A stretch of 64,000 nt of DNA from Patescibacteria group bacterium (GTDB taxonomy: Bacteria > Patescibacteriota > Minisyncoccia > Phycocordibacterales > PALSA-1337), in contig JAGWLA010000002.1 of assembly GCA_028865095.1 (NCBI GenBank), positions 49,319 through 113,318 on the forward strand, read 5' to 3'. The stretch's first letter is position 1. Every line of letters begins with the position of its first letter. Below the pieces are notes generated by a model, which saw only the letters and a program-made list of their open reading frames with translations, searched no databases and was not told the DNA's origin. Shown one piece after another: positions 9,991 to 18,844 of the stretch. The translations under genes and the position numbers were made by a program.

Positions 9991-10450
9991 CAAGGTCGAT
10001 TAATAGTCGCTAAAATTCTTTAACCATCCCAATGCCAGACAGATCAAGAGATAGGAATGGCAGGCTTCGCGAGAAGCGTGCTGACACCAAAGTCGAGACT
10101 CTGAAGGAGACCTACCCTGAATTCGAAGGTATAAATGGAAACATGCATCTCGGTACCCTCAAGGAAGCTTTCGGAACGGAATCGCTGGATGGAGTTCGTC
10201 GCGCTCTTCGCGGTGCATAGAACTTCATACAACCTAATACCCTGAAAACAGTCGAGACAAGCGGCTGTTTTTGTATGCCAAGTTTAAACTATTGCAAAAA
10301 TGAAAACAGGAGTATAATTGTCGCACTTGCACGCATGGTCAGGTCGTCCGTTGCGATCATGCGAATCTAGAAGTCCAGAAAACGCTCTTGAAGCGCCGTT
10401 TTCTGATCGGTTTTGTCAATGTTTTATTAATAGTTAACTTAGTATAGACT

Positions 10451-11314
10451 ATGTACACGACACAACTTTTACCTGTCATGATTAGCAAAAAGATATTATC
10501 GAATGTCGAATCGAAGCCGTATTTCCAAAAAGGCGATTTTGTTCTTTATCATGGGGATTCTTTGAATGTTCTGGCTCAGTTGCCGGAGAATTCTATAGAT
10601 ATGATATTTGCAGATCCGCCATACAACCTTTCAAACGGGGGTTTTAGCGTCCATGCAGGCAAAATGGTTAGTGTGAACAAAGGTGACTGGGACAAGAGTA
10701 AAGGATTCAAGGATGATTATGATTTTCATTATCGCTGGCTGGAGGCTTGTAAGCGCATACTGAAGCCAAATGGAACACTTTGGGTTAGTGGAACGTATCA
10801 TTCCATATATCAATGTGGCCATGCGCTTCAGGCGCTTGGTTATCATATCCTGAATGATATTTCTTGGTTTAAGCCGAATGCTTCACCGAACCTAAGTTGC
10901 AGATTTTTCACTGCAAGCCACGAGACGATCATTTGGGCTAGGAAGGACAAGAAGGGGAAACACACTTTTAACTATGAATGGATGAAGAATAAGGAATGGC
11001 CAAGCGACTTTTTTAAGAATCCTAATAAACAGATGAGGAGTGTTTGGCATATACCAGACGTAGAGGATGTTTGGACTGTCGGTACTCCCAAAAGGGAAGA
11101 GAAAACGTTTGGAAAACATCCTACACAGAAGCCGCTGGAACTTCTCCGTAGGATCGTGCTTGCAAGCACAAATAGGGGTAATATAGTCCTTGACCCATTC
11201 ACTGGCAGTTCGACTACGGGAATAGCCTCGATCATGAATGGTCGAAAGTTTGTCGGTATAGATACTACGAAGGATTTTCTTGAGCTTTCAAAGAAGCGAT
11301 TACTAGAATTATAG
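10451..11314 (+). CDS. type II DNA methyltransferase, beta-class amino-MTase (N6-adenine or N4-cytosine)
   Basis: Motif IV DPPY (IFADPPYNLS) precedes motif I (IVLDPFTGSSTTGIA) in a beta-class permutation. The gene sits in a low-GC (about 40%) segment. Confidence 0.8.
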   Translation: MYTTQLLPVMISKKILSNVESKPYFQKGDFVLYHGDSLNVLAQLPENSIDMIFADPPYNLSNGGFSVHAGKMVSVNKGDWDKSKGFKDDYDFHYRWLEACKRILKPNGTLWVSGTYHSIYQCGHALQALGYHILNDISWFKPNASPNLSCRFFTASHETIIWARKDKKGKHTFNYEWMKNKEWPSDFFKNPNKQMRSVWHIPDVEDVWTVGTPKREEKTFGKHPTQKPLELLRRIVLASTNRGNIVLDPFTGSSTTGIASIMNGRKFVGIDTTKDFLELSKKRLLEL

Positions 11315-11321
11315 AAACAAC

Positions 11322-11843
11322 ATGATCAAAAAAGGAGTTGGAGGAGGAAATACAATAACTGGTCTTCGCTTCGAAAAGAGAGCAAGCATCTTAAAGCTTC
11401 TTAGTAGTCATGAAGGCTATAAAGTAAAAGGTCACATTATCTATTACCAAGGTAATGAAGTAGCGCAAAGTTATAGAAAAAATGGACTATATAAATACCT
11501 CGAATCAAAGGGTGTAGACTACGAAAAATATATATCCAAGAAATTACTTCCCGACGAGGCTATTTATGTGATCAGAAATAACACTCTATTTGTCATAGAG
11601 ATTAAATTCCAGAGTGTTGCAGGCTCGGTCGATGAAAAGCTTCAGACTTGTGACTTCAAGAAAAAGCAATACAAGAAGCTTGTGGCACCACTTAATATCG
11701 ATGCAGAATATATCTATATTCTGAATGATTGGTTTAGGAGACCAGAATATAAAGATGTTCTGGACTATATTATTTCGGTTGGATGCCAGTATTATTTCCA
11801 ATACTTACCATTGGAGAAGATCGGGCTACCAGTCCCAGCCTAA
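11322..11843 (+). CDS. putative type II restriction endonuclease (PD-(D/E)xK fold)
   Basis: Starts 8 nt after the methyltransferase stop, with the same low GC. Candidate PD...ExK motif (LLPDEAIYVIRNNTLFVIEIKFQ). No database check possible. Confidence 0.45.
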   Translation: MIKKGVGGGNTITGLRFEKRASILKLLSSHEGYKVKGHIIYYQGNEVAQSYRKNGLYKYLESKGVDYEKYISKKLLPDEAIYVIRNNTLFVIEIKFQSVAGSVDEKLQTCDFKKKQYKKLVAPLNIDAEYIYILNDWFRRPEYKDVLDYIISVGCQYYFQYLPLEKIGLPVPA

Positions 11844-11862
11844 AGATAATTGTAATAATTTT

Positions 11863-13386
11863 ATGGCTACAAGTTGGAAGGAATGGGAAAATAAAATAGG
11901 AAGAATCTTTAAGAATATTGGTTATACAAAGGTAGATAATATTGATAATTCAATTAATCTACAACCAAGAGAATTCTGTTTAGAGAAGCTGAATCATGAT
12001 ATGCAGGTAGATGTATTTGTCTGTGTTGATAAATCTCAGTGGGTACATATAGAGTGCCGAGATCGGAGGAATCGGACCATAAATGGGTGGCTTCACGAGA
12101 TTAAAGGACGTACTAGCCAACGTCTGACAAAACTAAAGAAAGGATTAAAAATAAAAAATATCAAGGTATTTGGTGTAGCTGCCACATCGCTAAGAGACCT
12201 TGATGGTAAGACCCAGAATGTTGCGGATGATACTGGTGTTGCGCTTTGGCATCACGGAGTAGTGGATTATTTACTTGCTATAACTAAAGGTGCTGGTGGT
12301 CAAGCAGAAGAGCTAGTCTTGAATAGGTGTGGAATTAGGAGAAGTAAGTACTTACCAATAAACATACAAGTTCAACCATGGCCAGGTATATCTGAGTCCT
12401 GGTTTATTGGATACGTATCTCCGCTTCAGATAGCTCACGCGACATTTGTTTATCAACGTGGTAATGGATTTGGAGAATCTGCATATCAGAGATTTCTAAA
12501 ACCACAACGCATTACTGAGATAGCAGACTTTGTTAGAAGTGGTAAATCATTTCCTAATTCAATAGTGATGGCCTTGCCGAAGGGGACCAAGTTGCCAGGC
12601 AGTACCGTAATTAGAGCAAATAATCTAATTACGATTTCGATTCCTGGTGATCCGGAGGGGATCAAGATAATTGATGGTCAGCATAGATTTTTTGGAGCGT
12701 TAGCTTCTGGAATGAACCCGAAGCTTTTGTGCACATTTGTTCAATCTGAAGATCTAGATCAAGCGATCATGTTCGCGAAGATTAACGGTAAACAGGTTAG
12801 TGTTAGTAAGAGCCAATTGATCTCACTATTTTCAATTCCGAATTTTGCAGCAAAGATAGCAGCAGGATACTCAGAAAGAGATCATTTGAAGATTGAACGG
12901 GAGGACACGGTATATAGGGCACTCCAAAGAATGAACCAGAAAGGATTATTTGCTCACAAATTTAATTTTATCTCAGGTAGGCCTTCCAAGGACACGATAC
13001 CGTTTAAATTTATATTTGACACTCTTATGTCACTATGGAATGTTGAGCCGTCCGGACTTGTCACTCTATCAGGGACTACGCAGGAAAAAGGAAAAGTCTT
13101 AGGGGACCGCTTAACATCCTTTTTGTCTGCTTGGGGAAAAGTACTTGGAAAGGAACGCCTTATGGATAGTCAGATATGGTTGCAGCCAACCATGCTAAGT
13201 GCACTAATTAAGACGTATCCAGACTGTAGATGGAATGCTGGGAAAAAGGATGTTGATTCTTGGCTTAAGCGGAGAGGGAAAATATCGTGGATACCTAAAC
13301 CAGAATCTTATCGCGGTGGTTCAGGGGCCTCGACTTTATCAAAGCTGCTATGTAGGAAAATAGGTATCAAGTCACAGTATATTTAG
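11863..13386 (+). CDS. DGQHR-domain (DndB/DpdB-like, ParB/Srx-fold) protein with a ~240-aa N-terminal extension
   Basis: IIDGQHRFFGA motif, preceded by FPNSIVMALPKG, which is typical of the start of the DGQHR/DndB domain. The N-terminal domain (WENKIGRIFKNIGY...DVFVCVDKSQWVHIECRD) looks like an Mrr/restriction-endonuclease-type fold. Start is 19 nt after the putative endonuclease gene, so the three genes probably form one operon. Confidence 0.55.
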   Translation: MATSWKEWENKIGRIFKNIGYTKVDNIDNSINLQPREFCLEKLNHDMQVDVFVCVDKSQWVHIECRDRRNRTINGWLHEIKGRTSQRLTKLKKGLKIKNIKVFGVAATSLRDLDGKTQNVADDTGVALWHHGVVDYLLAITKGAGGQAEELVLNRCGIRRSKYLPINIQVQPWPGISESWFIGYVSPLQIAHATFVYQRGNGFGESAYQRFLKPQRITEIADFVRSGKSFPNSIVMALPKGTKLPGSTVIRANNLITISIPGDPEGIKIIDGQHRFFGALASGMNPKLLCTFVQSEDLDQAIMFAKINGKQVSVSKSQLISLFSIPNFAAKIAAGYSERDHLKIEREDTVYRALQRMNQKGLFAHKFNFISGRPSKDTIPFKFIFDTLMSLWNVEPSGLVTLSGTTQEKGKVLGDRLTSFLSAWGKVLGKERLMDSQIWLQPTMLSALIKTYPDCRWNAGKKDVDSWLKRRGKISWIPKPESYRGGSGASTLSKLLCRKIGIKSQYI

Positions 13387-13395
13387 TATCCACAG

Positions 13396-13893
13396 TTGAA
13401 ATACATGTCCACCGCCAAATCGACACGCTACAGCCCGGAGAGCTTCTTGAAGGGGAAGATAGGGGAATTCGTCTTCGAGGAGATGTTCCGCAGGGCGGGG
13501 AGATTCACGGTCCTGCCATTCGGCTATGAGAAGACCCTGCCGGAGGTGGCTCAAAGGGTCGACCACGTGAGGTACAAGCATATCCTCGAGAATATAAGGA
13601 GCGCGCCGGATTTCGTCATCATCTCCCATGACGCCGCTAACGTCTATATGGTCGAAGTCAAATACCGCACCACCAAGACGGCCGAGGAGATGCTCGAGAT
13701 CGCCAAGGGCATCCAGAAGCGCTGGACCGCCATATGGGTATTCCTGGCCACGCCCGACGGATTCTATTTCGACTCTTGCACCGATATCGTCAAGAATGGG
13801 GGAGCCATGGCGCGGCTCAATACCGGCTGGGTCGATGAGGAGACGCAGAGGGAGTTCGGGGAGTTGCTGAGGAAGTTTGTGCCGGGAAAGTAG
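13396..13893 (+). CDS. PD-(D/E)xK nuclease-fold protein (Hjc/restriction-endonuclease-like)
   Basis: GEFVFEEMFRRAGRFTVLPFGYEK...APDFVIISHDAANVYMVEVKYR resembles the Hjc/NucS-type G...PD...(E)VK core. Confidence 0.4.
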   Translation: MKYMSTAKSTRYSPESFLKGKIGEFVFEEMFRRAGRFTVLPFGYEKTLPEVAQRVDHVRYKHILENIRSAPDFVIISHDAANVYMVEVKYRTTKTAEEMLEIAKGIQKRWTAIWVFLATPDGFYFDSCTDIVKNGGAMARLNTGWVDEETQREFGELLRKFVPGK

Positions 13894-13918
13894 ATCTGCT
13901 CTGTGTTATTCTTTTGTA

Positions 13919-14422
13919 ATGACCCTGATTTCCACCTGGAAAGATCCCGACGGACACATGGTGCGCTTCGAATATGAGGATGCGGATGATTTCAGCATGC
14001 TGGACAAGAGCAAATGCCGCCAAGTGTATGGCGTCTGCTTCTGTGATGGCAAACTGGTCATAGGCCGCGGCGGGCGCAAGGGGGATTGGGGCCTCATAGG
14101 CGGGACCATAGAGCCTGGAGAGACATTCGAGGAGACTCTGAAGCGCGAGGTTCAAGAAGAGTCCAATATGGAGGTCCTTACCGCCAAACCAATCGGATAT
14201 CAGAAGGCTGTCGATACCCGTGACGGTTCATGGGTATACCAACTCCGTTATGTTTGTCGAGTGCAGCCGTATGGTCCGTTCACCGGCGATCCTGATGGTG
14301 GCAGTATACAGGAGATCAAGCTCATAGATCCCGCCGACTATCGCACATACTTCGATTGGGGAGAGACCGGTGAACGGATGATACATAGATCGATCGAGTC
14401 GATTGAAAGATTATCAAAATAA
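13919..14422 (+). CDS. NUDIX hydrolase
   Basis: Nudix box GGTIEPGETFEETLKREVQEESNMEV (Gx5Ex7REUxEExGU). Start placed at MTLISTW. Confidence 0.7.
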   Translation: MTLISTWKDPDGHMVRFEYEDADDFSMLDKSKCRQVYGVCFCDGKLVIGRGGRKGDWGLIGGTIEPGETFEETLKREVQEESNMEVLTAKPIGYQKAVDTRDGSWVYQLRYVCRVQPYGPFTGDPDGGSIQEIKLIDPADYRTYFDWGETGERMIHRSIESIERLSK

Positions 14423-14432
14423 GCAGTCAAAC

Positions 14433-14885
14433 ATGCCCACCCCACGCTCTCAGCGGAGCTACTGGCTCATCAAATCCGAAGGGGATTGCTACTCGATCGA
14501 CGACTTGCGGCGCGACCGGCGCACGGCGTGGACGGGCATACGCAATTATCAGGCCAGGAACTACATGCGAGACATGAAGCCGGGCGACCTCCTGCTCTTC
14601 TACCATTCCATGGCCGACCCCACCGGCATATACGGCATCGCCAAGGTCGCGAGCGCGCCGTATGCCGACCCGACCGCTCTCGACCCGAAGGACGAGCATT
14701 ATGACCCGAAGCGCCCGTGGGTATGCGTGGACGTGGCCTTCGTCAAGAAGCTCGCCGCTCCGGTCTCGCTTGCAGAGATCAAGGCCGATCCTGCGCTCCG
14801 GCATATGCTCGTCGCCCGGCGCGGCCAGCGCCTGTCCGTCATGCCCGTCGAGGAGGCGCATTTCAAGAAGGTGGAGGCTATGTGA
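14433..14885 (+). CDS. EVE domain (PUA-like) protein
   Basis: YWLIKSEG...WTGIRNYQARNYMRDMKPGDLLLFYHS...GIYGIAKV matches the EVE/Thy28-like PUA fold that binds modified bases. Confidence 0.6.
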   Translation: MPTPRSQRSYWLIKSEGDCYSIDDLRRDRRTAWTGIRNYQARNYMRDMKPGDLLLFYHSMADPTGIYGIAKVASAPYADPTALDPKDEHYDPKRPWVCVDVAFVKKLAAPVSLAEIKADPALRHMLVARRGQRLSVMPVEEAHFKKVEAM

Positions 14886-15001
14886 TCTTCGGCATTGACA
14901 CGCATGCTATAATAAAGCCTCCGAAGTATTCATCCTATCGTTGTTCCGAGCGTCTATCAGCAGGAATGCCCTCATCAGGGTGTTTTTTAATCCAAAAAGC
15001 C

Positions 15002-15409
15002 ATGGCAAAAGCTTTCGATATCTGGAATTCCGTCAAGAAAAGGCTCGATGACAAGGTCATCGGTCGCGACTTCTATTTCAATGAGCGCGAGATATGGTGG
15101 TGCTCGCTCGGGCTCAATGTCGGAGTGGAGTCTGACGGAAAGAGCGACACGTTCGAACGGCCTGTCCTTATCATAAAGAAATTCAATGGGGACATGGTAT
15201 GGATCGTGCCGCTCACCGGTATGCCGCATGACGATAGGTATCACAGAAAGATAGCGCACGGGCGCAACGAATCGTGGGCGTGCCTGACTCAGATACGCAC
15301 GATCAGCACCAAAAGGCTATTGAGGAAGGTCGGAACGCTCGAGGAAGCATATTATCAAAGCGTAGTGGAGGGAGTCGCAGCCAATATAAAAACGAAACCC
15401 TCGCTGTAA
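15002..15409 (+). CDS. MazF/PemK-family toxin-like endoribonuclease
   Basis: REIWWCSLGLNVGVESDGKSDTFERPVLIIKK...VWIVPLTG matches the MazF/EndoA core (Exx-W-xxL-xx-GxE...RPVLhh...V..hPhT). No antitoxin-like ORF is evident upstream. The start is uncertain: in-frame ATGs at 14966 and 15002, with a TGCTATAAT -10 at 14907. Confidence 0.45.
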   Translation: MAKAFDIWNSVKKRLDDKVIGRDFYFNEREIWWCSLGLNVGVESDGKSDTFERPVLIIKKFNGDMVWIVPLTGMPHDDRYHRKIAHGRNESWACLTQIRTISTKRLLRKVGTLEEAYYQSVVEGVAANIKTKPSL

Positions 15410-15470
15410 AGCGAGGGAATCTCGGAGGCCGAAGCCGCTAATACAACAAGTGTAGGCGAATCGAAGCCGG

Positions 15471-15905
15471 GTGTCAATATCTTCTTTGTACATCTGCTAT
15501 CATGTCCCGATGATATCCTCGCGCATCCGCATCCGCCTTCGGGTCCCGCTCTGGCAGACCAGGAGCCGCAAGCTGTACATGGCCAACAGGGAAGCCGCCA
15601 GGAGCCTGGTCCATGAGCGGATCGGGCACTTCATGGCGCATTATGGGCCCCGGCATGGCATCGTCCCAGGCCGCGTCGCCATACGCAATCAGAGGAGCCG
15701 ATGGGGCTCGTGCTCCAGGAAGGGCAACCTCAATTTCAATTACAAGATCCTCTTCCTGCCCGCGGCGGCGCGCGACTATGTCATCGTGCATGAGCTGTGC
15801 CATTTGAAGGAGTTCAACCACGGCAGGCGCTTCTGGGACCTGGTGGCCGAGACCGTGCCGGACTATAAGGCGATCAAAAAGGGGATGAGGGAGCGGGTGG
15901 GGTGA
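15471..15905 (+). CDS. DUF45/YgjP-like metal-dependent hydrolase (M48-like HExxH), apparently N-terminally truncated
   Basis: RWGSCSRKGNLNFNYKILFLPAAARDYVIVHELCHLKEFNHGRRFWDLVAETVPDYK matches the WGSC...HELxHL core of DUF45. About 60-70 aa of the usual N-terminus seem to be missing. Confidence 0.55.
   Translation: MSISSLYICYHVPMISSRIRIRLRVPLWQTRSRKLYMANREAARSLVHERIGHFMAHYGPRHGIVPGRVAIRNQRSRWGSCSRKGNLNFNYKILFLPAAARDYVIVHELCHLKEFNHGRRFWDLVAETVPDYKAIKKGMRERVG

Positions 15906-16492: not shown

Positions 16493-18844
<2,352 letters not shown>

Follow-up and report, generated by a model that had tools for sequence, protein, structure and literature searches.

Gene organization of the locus

The window analyzed here, a 64,000-nucleotide stretch of DNA from a Patescibacteria group bacterium, contains a low-GC island with a three-gene cassette at positions 10250..13400, as delimited by composition profiles. 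All genes and protein features of the cassette lie on the forward strand. The GC contents of the methyltransferase gene (41.9%), the small gene (36.4%), and the fusion gene (40.2%) stand against 61% in the rest of the window. The island was horizontally acquired; a search of its edges found neither a tRNA gene nor flanking repeats, and promoter and terminator motifs were not enriched there.

The first gene (10451..11314) encodes a 287-aa DNA methyltransferase (MTase) of the beta class (N6/N4 type) with a DPPY motif, which matched Pfam N6_N4_Mtase with an E-value of 5.9e-57. It scored 245 bits with the CcrM-like model of NCBIfam, under the equivalog cut-off, and matched PADLOC MTase_II with an E-value of 4.8e-98. 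The enzyme is CcrM/HinfI-like and, because of this likeness, probably an m6A MTase. Palindrome avoidance in the window, analyzed as a clue to the MTase target, showed no informative depletion (GANTC, 125 occurrences versus 149 expected).

The second gene (11322..11843) encodes a small PD-(D/E)XK protein of 173 aa, assigned by Pfam and alignment as PDDEXK_11-like with the motif D78...I-E-I-K95-x-Q. The match to Pfam PDDEXK_11 was sub-threshold (E 9e-4, 19.4 bits, cut-off 23.7), and the protein was aligned with the PDDEXK_11 proteins of homologous loci. More than 7324 homologues were found at 75-81% identity, and their usual context is a two-gene pair of an MTase and a 176-aa protein, without a DGQHR gene. 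The 173-aa protein is thus a candidate type II restriction endonuclease and partner of the MTase. A 165-aa ORF downstream of the cassette (13396..13893) was rejected as a member of the system, having host-like GC and lacking conservation in other loci. The only match of this ORF was a weak one to a generic PD-(D/E)XK motif.

The fusion gene and its start codon

The product of the third gene (11863..13386) begins with a PD-(D/E)XK-fold domain, continues with a ParB-like DGQHR domain, and ends in a helical region. As first described, translation of the gene is stop-free, with 507 aa followed by the stop codon. A longer reading is possible from an ATG at 11725, but it would share sequence with the 3′ end of the preceding gene; this start was rejected because of the overlap and because homologues begin at the position of 11863. 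The N-terminus M-[AS]-T-H-W-K-E-W-E is common to all 11 full-length homologues and aligns with the ATG at 11863, which, judged from this agreement, is the correct start codon. Since the 11 homologues share this start, the N-terminal extension that the preliminary description had taken to be translated is so, with no start further downstream. Mis-joining of two genes was also rejected, the ORF being continuous and colinear in the 11 homologues. An identical protein is on deposit as 'MAG: DGQHR domain-containing protein [Patescibacteria group bacterium]'. The product is one polypeptide that joins a PD-(D/E)XK restriction-endonuclease-fold domain (residues 1-155) to a DGQHR ParB-like domain (residues ~170-450), so that the proposed fusion of an N-terminal fold to a ParB-like DGQHR module was confirmed.

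The N-terminal domain has a PD-(D/E)XK fold

The N-terminal PD-(D/E)XK (restriction-endonuclease-like) domain, residues 1-155 (11863..12327), was assigned from a structure model, Foldseek, and the profile matches of relatives. Residues 1-155 modelled alone gave a pLDDT of 86.1 and a pTM of 0.83, and this confident model contains the alpha-beta-beta-beta-alpha-beta core of the PD-(D/E)XK superfamily. The AlphaFold2 elements are helix 4-18, strands 37-44, 48-54, and 59-66, helix 70-95, strand 101-108, helix 115-124, strand 127-129, and helix 131-155. The N-terminal strings quoted in the preliminary description are present, WENKIG... forming helix 1 and MQVDVFV...HIECRD forming strands 2 and 3. 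Foldseek comparison of the domain model with the PDB gave Cdn1 (E 2.7e-3) and Card1 (E 4.1e-3), and also VC1899, BspD6I, EndoMS, and FokI. All interpretable top matches were nucleases, with modest TM-scores of 0.35-0.51. Structure prediction therefore returned a nuclease-like fold of the Mrr/Hjc/Card1 kind, in agreement with the restriction-endonuclease-like half that had been supposed. Its size was overestimated, however, since AlphaFold2 secondary structure gives a domain of ~155 aa instead of ~240 aa; the extension in front of the DGQHR domain is ~165 aa.

Sequence searches gave fainter signals. No Pfam family, nuclease or other, was matched by residues 1-185 at E-values up to 10, including the Mrr_cat model, and a distant homologue (P0159) matched Pfam Mrr_cat (PF04471) sub-threshold (E 0.004, 17.7 bits versus 21). 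PDB sequence searches with the full protein and with a narrower N-domain profile gave no matches. A widened N-domain profile weakly matched Hjc (E 0.03) and Can2 (E 0.066) on the D..ECK motif; the best score in that search, ADP-dependent glucokinase, covers a helical segment only and looks spurious. Card1 was likewise among the weak sequence matches of relatives on this motif. A weak precomputed RE_XamI match on another homologue (P0006) was not reproduced.

The candidate active site comprises three segments. In helix 1, E9 (11887..11889) is a candidate active-site glutamate, and in strand 2, Q48-V-D50 (12004..12012) provides D50 as a candidate metal-binding Asp. In strand 3, conserved-column comparison places E64-C65-R66-D-R-R-N (12052..12072) at the 'ExK' position, with Arg for Lys. 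E9, D50, and E64 are invariant in the subfamily, and the Lys position is Arg (R66) in all 11 full-length members. Among 80 relatives of the broader family at ~25% identity, the catalytic columns hold the E of helix 1 in 75, D in 73, the E of strand 3 in 70, C in 79, and K in 61, and the Lys column otherwise holds T (8), R (3), and Q (3). Nuclease activity of the domain is therefore no more than plausible, as the subfamily invariably has Arg (in E64-C65-R66) for the catalytic Lys of D...ExK. The exchange may alter the chemistry, so that the domain might nick DNA, cleave it slowly, or only clamp it. In annotation, a PD-(D/E)XK label can now be given to the first ~155 residues of proteins entered as 'DGQHR domain-containing protein' of this type.

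The DGQHR domain and the C-terminal region

Residues ~170-450 (12370..13212) form a DGQHR (DndB-type, ParB/Srx-like) domain. The match to NCBIfam TIGR03187, at 68.7 bits, exceeds the curated cut-off (58.85), with residues 198-450 aligning to profile positions 30-270. The match to Pfam DndB (PF14072) reached 25.6 bits, under the gathering threshold of 29.1, and covered profile positions 20-160 of 338 only; distant relatives passed this model with 42-69 bits. The signature motifs are Q209-R210 ('QR', 12487..12492), nearly invariant in the full-length alignment of the subfamily; D271-G-Q-H-R275 (12673..12687), equivalent to ParB box II (P motif) and invariant in the subfamily; and F304-A-K-I-N308 ('FxxxN', 12772..12786), with F304 and N308 invariant. 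As defined previously, QR, DGQ(H/Q)R, and FxxxN motifs are common to DUF262 and DGQHR domains (PMC4619093), and DGQHR is carried by 80/80 broad-family members. The above-cut-off match and the three motifs thus bear out the DGQHR/DndB-type domain first noticed. Its core had been placed from about residue 250, whereas the hhalign register and the alignment of DndB profile position 20 to residue 188 indicate that the domain begins near residue 170. The core motifs themselves are present, with FPNSIV at residues 230-235 and DGQHR at 271.

Foldseek with the full-length model gave ParB with CDP (6sdk) as the best, weak match (E 0.086). The DGQHR part of this model has moderate-to-low confidence, with a pLDDT of 40-78 that falls below 50 for residues 296-336. 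In vitro, the box II arginine of a DndB-like protein mediates binding of ATP and GTP (PMC12704722), and the DGQHR domain is, via the box II residue R275, a candidate NTP-binding switch. The C-terminal helical region (residues ~390-507, 13030..13383) is subfamily-specific and has a pLDDT of 84-95. A HEPN domain was sought in the window protein, and no Pfam match, no Rx4-6H motif, and no second hhalign match was obtained. Likewise, the C-terminal region of the subfamily showed no detectable similarity to HEPN domains.

The fusion protein is an offshoot of a larger family

The window subfamily is rare, comprising 14 proteins in 5.8 billion, with 6 N-domain matches in 1.84 billion representatives. 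Its 11 full-length homologues share 52-69% identity, have intact ORFs, and come from different phyla and habitats. Of the 165 columns of the N-domain alignment, 46 are invariant, as are 66 columns of the full-length alignment, and the positions of start and stop are kept, indicating clear purifying selection. A scan of a genome collection found one close relative only, a Verrucomicrobia MAG whose locus is identical with one already in the set (L006), and in a phage collection neither the fusion nor the small nuclease was matched. A homologue search with the widened N-domain profile returned short fragments (85-277 aa) or split genes only and was of no use for family size.

A broad family of ~760-aa proteins with nuclease, DGQHR, and often HEPN domains has at least 328 metagenomic members; column and context counts for it refer to 80 sampled members. 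Alignment of the subfamily with the broad family by hhalign gave a probability of 99.9% and an E-value of 1.9e-32, with residues 3-386 on 59-441, colinear over both domains. The match stops at residue 386. An E...Q-x-D...E-C-x motif register is common to both groups, and a C-terminal Rx3-5H motif occurs in 60/80 broad-family relatives. The window protein is a truncated, HEPN-less offshoot of this nuclease-DGQHR(-HEPN) family. The preliminary description regarded the fusion as unusual, a view that does not hold given these colinear homologues. Moreover, fusions of ParB-like domains with REase and HEPN domains have already been noted in restriction-modification (R-M) contexts by comparative genomics (PMC3632139, PMC3710099), including a ParB-HEPN fusion listed as Saro_3948 (PMC3710099). 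As far as searches show, the lineage that combines the DGQHR clade with a restriction-endonuclease fold is large and experimentally untouched, and its members are linked mainly to Dam-type methyltransferases.

Genomic context in relatives

In all seven distinct subfamily loci, the fusion gene adjoins an MTase gene of the N6_N4 or D12 class and a gene for a PDDEXK_11-like small protein. The MTase gene of the window cassette precedes the fusion by two genes; in another locus (L007), the fusion gene faces the MTase/nuclease pair in convergent orientation and is not co-transcribed with it. The small-nuclease partner switches type (22% identity) while the fusion stays more than 52% identical, and the two show no visible sequence-specific co-adaptation. 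Adjoining the fusion in one subfamily locus is an additional protein that contains an RNSLQH motif. An extra 241-aa protein of two loci (L006 and L019), tested as a HEPN domain, showed no detectable similarity.

An MTase gene lies within 300 nt on the same strand in 62/80 sampled broad-family loci, and within 300 nt in 33 of the 44 loci with at least 900 nt on both flanks. D12 MTases account for 48 of 93 flanking ORFs. Stop and start codons of the MTase and the fusion-family gene often overlap, and in one member (P0032) the overlap is with the start of an N6_N4 MTase gene. The usual setting of broad-family genes is thus an operon of two genes, the other encoding a DNA adenine methyltransferase. 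Other members adjoin dnd genes or a DGQHR/radical-SAM/ATPase trio, which suggests that one kind of effector is combined with various modification modules. The tight operonic linkage to adenine MTases points to a modification-linked restriction partner, as are DndI and SspE. The analogy to GmrSD and SspE that had been drawn for the fusion is apt in architecture, but the context fits a partner of the DndI or SspE kind better than an enzyme that stands by itself, as GmrSD does. Systems of this sort are not represented among the models of PADLOC 2.0.

Proposed function and alternative explanations

Because the window protein is an offshoot of a large family usually found beside a DNA adenine methyltransferase, it is probably a nucleotide-controlled restriction component and no one-off oddity. 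By analogy with DndI and SspE, we tentatively propose, at a little under an even chance, that it is an NTP-gated restriction effector using the methylation by its neighbor as a self mark. The fusion protein would be the effector arm of a methylation-based restriction system, in which the DGQHR domain, binding and hydrolyzing nucleotide, would function on DNA as a switch, with the m6A mark of the neighboring MTase taken as self. On marked DNA, nucleotide turnover would release or silence the fusion protein; incoming DNA that lacks the mark would be cut or nicked by the nuclease-fold domain. The model for this scheme is DndI/SspE, in which a DUF262 ParB-like NTPase joined to an HNH nuclease reads phosphorothioate marks. 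In the subfamily, the effector would be bolted onto an ordinary, self-sufficient type II-like MTase/endonuclease pair and would share its MTase, giving two restriction arms under one modification. Against this model, the pair of MTase and small nuclease usually occurs without the fusion (more than 7300 homologues of the small protein), and the fusion is therefore dispensable for the pair. The Arg at the Lys position, the low model confidence and weak ParB match of the DGQHR part, the convergent arrangement in L007, the changing small-nuclease partner, and the lack of a PADLOC model likewise count against it.

Alternatively, the gene could encode a transcriptional regulator of the DndB kind that is modulated by NTP and governs the adjacent R-M genes in a controller-protein role, its nuclease fold being dead through the Lys-to-Arg exchange and serving DNA binding or oligomerization. 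DndB, the founding DGQHR protein, has been reported to repress the dnd operon in an ATP-modulated manner (PMC4507180), every subfamily member has R66 where the catalytic Lys would be, and the gene is optional, its MTase/nuclease pair being otherwise complete. Nevertheless, E9, D50, and E64, invariant in the subfamily, are 88-94% conserved in the 80 distant relatives, which is unexpected for a purely structural domain. Most of these relatives keep the full ExK motif and a HEPN RNase-type domain, the equipment of an effector, and a search for HTH and promoter repeats found none. We consider such a regulator unlikely. Equally improbable in our judgment is a back-up suicide (abortive infection) effector that acts on failure or inhibition of the R-M system by non-specific DNA degradation or nucleotide depletion. 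This role was proposed by Makarova, Koonin and Aravind for modification-linked ParB-like nuclease fusions (PMC3632139, PMC10853773), and the HEPN (RNase-type toxin) domain of the broad family and the RNSLQH-motif protein of one locus would suit it. However, HEPN is lost in the window subfamily, no sensor or trigger module is identifiable, and the broad family is linked to methyltransferases and not to complete R-M systems (the small nuclease occurs in 0/80 loci), which fits a restriction partner better.

A free-standing, modification-dependent enzyme of type IV (GmrSD-like), directed against foreign modified DNA and placed beside R-M genes by defense-gene clustering, would agree with the ParB-like NTPase and nuclease architecture of GmrSD and BrxU, the latter being among the weak Foldseek matches. 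The Mrr catalytic domain comes from a methyl-directed enzyme, the cassette lies within a mobile low-GC island, and the convergent arrangement in L007 is not operonic. Yet an adenine MTase directly adjacent in 7/7 subfamily and 62/80 broad-family contexts is far tighter than defense-island clustering, and an m6A-directed enzyme beside an m6A MTase would be self-destructive; we regard this explanation as quite improbable. Finally, the protein is shorter than its ~760-aa relatives, lacks HEPN and the catalytic lysine, and belongs to a rare subfamily, so it might be a decaying, non-functional remnant. The intact homologues from different phyla and habitats and the purifying selection described above largely refute this reading, which we consider very improbable.

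More generally, nuclease-DGQHR proteins might be the restriction subunits of an unrecognized, widespread class of NTP-dependent R-M systems, in which the DGQHR switch would read the mark of the partner (usually Dam-type m6A, elsewhere phosphorothioate or a radical-SAM-made mark) and license the PD-(D/E)XK nuclease. We hold this wider proposal to be doubtful, albeit possible. If true, the subfamily would show that the effector can be plugged into a type II MTase/endonuclease pair, giving two mechanistically different arms with one MTase. Should the mechanism of the NTP-gated effector hold, an NTP-switch-controlled class would be added to the methylation-based restriction systems, DGQHR proteins would gain a role beyond DndB regulation and DpdB ATPase function, and the Lys-to-Arg subfamily would offer a natural variant for dissecting nuclease gating.

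Comparison with known systems

Fusions of ParB-like NTPases to nucleases (GmrSD, BrxU, SspE, and DndI) are an emerging theme in bacterial immunity. To our knowledge, the characterized ones all have the DUF262/HNH pairing. Like GmrSD and BrxU, the window protein fuses a ParB-like NTPase domain to a nuclease-fold domain, and BrxU was a marginal Foldseek match of the full model (E 0.9). GmrSD differs in attacking modified (glucosyl-hmC) DNA with an HNH nuclease and in having no methyltransferase coupling. DndI and SspE provide the precedent for a modification-sensed NTPase that gates a nuclease (PMC11662687), and they share with the window protein the combination of both modules in one polypeptide that is genetically coupled to a DNA-modification module. 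In contrast, they belong to the DUF262 'DGQQR' clade, carry a C-terminal DUF1524 HNH nuclease, and are linked to phosphorothioation, whereas the window protein belongs to the DGQHR clade, carries an N-terminal PD-(D/E)XK fold, and is linked to adenine methylation. No match to DUF262, DUF1524, or HNH was obtained for the fusion in Pfam, NCBIfam, or PADLOC. Membership in the GmrSD/SspE/DndI family was rejected because the motif is DGQHR, not DGQQR, and because a PD-(D/E)XK type of nuclease fold stands at the N-terminus.

Canonical DndB and DpdB resemble the window protein in having a DGQHR domain with all three signature motifs and, unlike it, are without the N-terminal nuclease-fold domain. The score with DGQHR_dnd_1 (TIGR04172) was 51.3 bits versus 450, that with the DpdB equivalog NF041060 was 18.1 bits versus 300, and PADLOC DpdB gave 23 bits. 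No dnd or dpd genes lie near the fusion, and the cassette contains no DpdA-like (TGT-like) gene. Orthology to DndB or DpdB was rejected because the equivalog scores failed and the neighbors are a methyltransferase and a small nuclease.

The N-terminal domain shares with the Mrr catalytic domain, Hjc, Card1, Can2, and Cdn1 the alpha-beta-beta-beta-alpha-beta core, the Glu in helix 1, the Asp in strand 2, and the E/Q-C-K of strand 3, but with Arg at the Lys position. It is joined to a DGQHR domain, whereas that of Mrr is joined to a winged helix and those of Card1 and Can2 to a CARF domain. Closest in architecture are the uncharacterized 'REase-fold + DGQHR + Swt1-like HEPN' proteins, annotated only as 'DGQHR domain-containing protein', with an example on Novosphingobium aromaticivorans plasmid pNL1. 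Compared with this broad family, the window protein is shorter (507 aa), has a different C-terminal helical region in place of HEPN, and shows E-C-R for E-C-K; it is also linked to an MTase plus a small PDDEXK_11 nuclease, which was present in 0/80 broad-family loci. Both groups have in common the colinear nuclease-fold and DGQHR domains and the tight linkage to a DNA adenine methyltransferase.

The fusion gene, its start codon and its cassette

Translation of the window gave an unbroken open reading frame (ORF) of 507 codons plus stop at 11863..13386 (+), the fusion gene, which is the third and last of three genes on the same strand. It follows a beta-class N6/N4 DNA methyltransferase gene (10451..11314, +; Pfam E 5.9e-57) and a gene (11322..11843, +) whose 173-aa product shows the motif D...I-E-x-K-x-Q and matches PDDEXK_11 below threshold. 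Gaps of 7 and 19 nt separate the three genes; the coupling of the fusion gene to DNA-modification genes is tight and operonic. The cassette island has a GC content of 36-42%, compared with 61% in the remaining window. The database entry for an identical protein reads 'MAG: DGQHR domain-containing protein [Patescibacteria group bacterium]'. In the deposited record the organism is given as a Patescibacteria-group MAG; even so, GC is ~61% across the window outside the island, so that the DGQHR cassette is conspicuous by composition.

The alignment showed that M-[AS]-T-H-W-K-E-W-E opens all 11 full-length homologues at the position of the 11863 ATG, indicating that the start codon chosen in the preliminary description was right and that the N-terminal extension is translated. 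An alternative ATG at 11725 was rejected, because the longer version would run over the end of the upstream gene in a different frame and the homologues begin at 11863.

Downstream of the island, a 165-aa ORF (13396-13893, +) begins 10 nt past the fusion's stop and carries a PDF...VEVK motif with a PD-(D/E)XK look. Its GC content (~55%) is host-like, it had no Pfam or NCBIfam match, it was not conserved 3' of the fusion at other loci, and its hhalign match to the PDDEXK_11 alignment was weak (E 5e-4, probability 32%). A run of small genes (13877-15905) comes next, encoding a NUDIX hydrolase (13877-14422, +), an EVE domain protein (14403-14885, +), a protein with a PemK/MazF-like toxin domain (14717-15409, +) and a YgjP-like metallopeptidase (15471-15905, +), followed by gyrB (16652-18844). 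Because the PemK/MazF-like match covers residues 124-221 only, the true start of that ORF is probably later than called.

Domain architecture and candidate active site

The C-terminal two thirds of the fusion passed the curated DGQHR model TIGR03187 (residues 198-450; 68.7 bits vs a cut-off of 58.85), and the signature motifs defined previously (PMC4619093) were present as QR (209-210), DGQHR (271-275) and FxxxN (304-308). The Pfam DndB score was slightly below threshold (25.6 bits vs 29.1), and the DpdB and dnd-associated equivalog models were failed by far.

The AlphaFold2 model of the full-length protein, built with a 13-sequence family alignment, was moderate (pLDDT 75.6), and the N-terminal 165 residues modelled alone reached pLDDT 86.1 and pTM 0.83. 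The predicted order of helix, three strands, long helix, strand, helix, strand and helix is that of a PD-(D/E)XK core. An N-domain profile run against 1.84 billion representative proteins found six matches in all, and in two of them (P0158 and P0159) a DGQHR domain comes after the same N-domain; P0159 also matched Pfam Mrr_cat below threshold (E 0.004). A third match, P0157, was a false positive: this 657-aa protein consists of ~10 near-identical 66-aa repeats and matched in 10 stretches at profile positions 30-66 only. Further distant relatives gave weak Hjc, HSDR_N_2, Card1_endonuc and NERD matches in the same region, and in the PDB a widened profile picked up Hjc and Can2 at their D...E-C-K motif. 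Therefore, the model and the relatives' matches indicate that the N-terminal domain is a restriction-endonuclease-like fold, as had been guessed, with a length of about 155 residues instead of ~240; the DGQHR/DndB-type domain behind it was likewise confirmed, starting near residue 170 and not 250.

Both the nuclease-type and the box-II-type motifs are conserved. In the subfamily, comprising the fusion and its close homologues, the invariant residues include E9 in helix 1, Q48 and D50 in strand 2 and, in strand 3, E64-C65-R66 with D-R-R-N behind it. When 80 sampled members of the broad family were aligned to the same profile, the equivalent columns held E in 75/80, D in 73/80, E in 70/80 and C in 79/80, and the Lys position was occupied by K 61 times, by T 8 times and by R and Q 3 times each, indicating a canonical E/D/ExK nuclease site. 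In the window's subfamily, Arg is fixed at the Lys position and every acidic ligand is retained. A dead domain would also lose its acidic residues; this argues that the putative site is still used, with a chemistry that the Arg may alter.

A large family of nuclease-DGQHR proteins

When the subfamily was compared profile to profile with 17 distant DGQHR proteins (460-800 aa), the match had 99.9% probability (E 1.9e-32), spanned residues 3-386 and was colinear across both domains. The usual addition in these relatives is a C-terminal Swt1-like HEPN domain. A metagenome scan with their alignment confirmed at least 328 relatives, the best 80 of which are all ~760 aa and cover the three regions. 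Thus, the fusion is not the unusual case that it was first taken for. Comparative genomics had noted this large family earlier: ParB-like (COG1479/DUF262/DGQHR) domains fused to HNH, PD-(D/E)xK and HEPN were linked to restriction-modification systems (PMC3632139), and Swt1-like HEPN was found fused to ParB, e.g. in Saro_3948, and HEPN genes were placed in common operons with genes for a ParB nuclease and for a DNA methylase (PMC3710099). Our literature search found no experimental work on any member; a ~770-aa member on Novosphingobium plasmid pNL1 is annotated merely as 'DGQHR domain-containing protein'.

Genomic context of the subfamily and the broad family

Seven distinct subfamily members (the window, L001, L003-5, L006 (the same locus as L019), L007, L008/9 and L024) come from differing samples and lineages, and the gene is horizontally mobile. 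In 7/7, the fusion has a DNA methyltransferase and a small protein of the PDDEXK_11 type as neighbours. Throughout these loci the fusion is 52-69% identical, the methyltransferase is of the N6_N4 class or, at two loci, D12, the small protein has 132-179 aa with identity down to 22%, and the orientation differs in one locus (L007, convergent). The 173-aa protein has >7324 homologues (75-81% identity), and the examined loci hold a two-gene pair with a methyltransferase and without a DGQHR gene. The pair is a putative ordinary, self-sufficient type II-like module to which the fusion is a rare add-on.

At L007 (4641-8913), an island of 43-45% GC in a ~62% GC genome encodes the fusion together with an N6_N4 methyltransferase and a PDDEXK_11 protein of 140 aa, and adjoins EVE (46% identical) and YgjP-like (48% identical) genes as in the window at 10250-15905; gene order, orientation and small-nuclease type are not the same. 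The common neighbours suggest either that both islands use one integration hot spot or that the island is old and its parts were exchanged. In the Verrucomicrobia version of this cassette (L006 3743-5996, the same as L019 1846-4105), additional genes separate the fusion from the D12 methyltransferase; they encode a 108-110-aa protein, a 277-aa protein without family match that also occurs in L008/L009, and a 230-241-aa protein with an R-N-S-L-Q-H motif (Rx4H, HEPN-like), whose HEPN homology was tested and unconfirmed. On the Neisseria gonorrhoeae chromosome (L025 2303-3456; listed as a plasmid in PLSDB), a small-nuclease homologue (49% identical), missing from the gene-table annotation and matched in two pieces, lies directly 3' of a beta-class methyltransferase split in two ORFs; this resembles a decayed version of the methyltransferase/nuclease pair.

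Among the best 80 of at least 328 broad-family loci, D12-class (Dam-type) methyltransferases accounted for 48/93 directly flanking ORFs, and a methyltransferase lay within 300 nt on the same strand at 62/80 loci (33/44 where both flanks were ≥900 nt); the small PDDEXK_11 protein was found at 0/80. One other member lies inside a dnd phosphorothioation cluster, one overlaps an N6_N4 methyltransferase, and some adjoin a short-DGQHR/radical-SAM/ATPase trio. Therefore, the same kind of protein pairs with differing DNA-modification modules.

The distant relative P0017 (654 aa; DGQHR and HEPN; its nuclease motif reads E-C-T) is flanked by a dndB/C/D/E cluster and by a helicase, SMC-like and 'dnd-associated protein 4' block (L015 1-13965), and is thus a second DGQHR protein, besides DndB, within this phosphorothioation locus. 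On Novosphingobium pNL1 (L106 5841-8998) and an Agrobacterium plasmid (L107 5970-9118), the long nuclease-DGQHR-HEPN protein adjoins a conserved trio of short DGQHR, radical SAM and ATP-binding proteins, and this trio may form a DNA-modification module, so far undescribed, that is paired with the same effector. Among the metagenomic neighbours, too, there were matches to Radical_SAM and HATPase_c_3.

Proposed mechanism

We infer that the fusion protein is the effector (restriction) partner of the modification enzyme. The DGQHR switch would read m6A from the neighbouring methyltransferase, the PD-(D/E)XK domain would act on DNA without the mark, and in the window's subfamily the effector would use the methyltransferase in common with the type II-like pair. 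We put this combination forward tentatively, at somewhat less than an even chance.

The fixed Arg could also fit a regulator of the DndB kind whose nuclease fold is disabled; with the acidic ligands retained, we consider this unlikely, and a suicide effector acting as a back-up is similarly improbable. Slightly less probable still is a type IV enzyme unrelated to the cassette in which it travels, as the genomic context points to a methyltransferase-coupled role over a modification-attacking one. Purifying selection speaks against a decaying remnant, which is very improbable.

The preliminary description's fold call and its analogy with GmrSD/SspE hold, and its interpretation, supported in part, needs revision in that the family is large and had been noted before, the catalytic lysine is replaced and the context points to coupling with a methyltransferase. 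The methyltransferase-linked nuclease-DGQHR family, a larger prize than the window's gene, is a candidate for a new class of NTP-dependent restriction systems. For a DndB-like protein, binding of ATP and GTP via the box II arginine has been described (PMC12704722). DndI and SspE join a ParB-like NTPase to a nuclease and sense the host phosphorothioate mark; nucleotide hydrolysis then frees the enzyme from self DNA or else activates it (PMC11662687); these two are the closest worked-out precedents for the mechanism proposed here.
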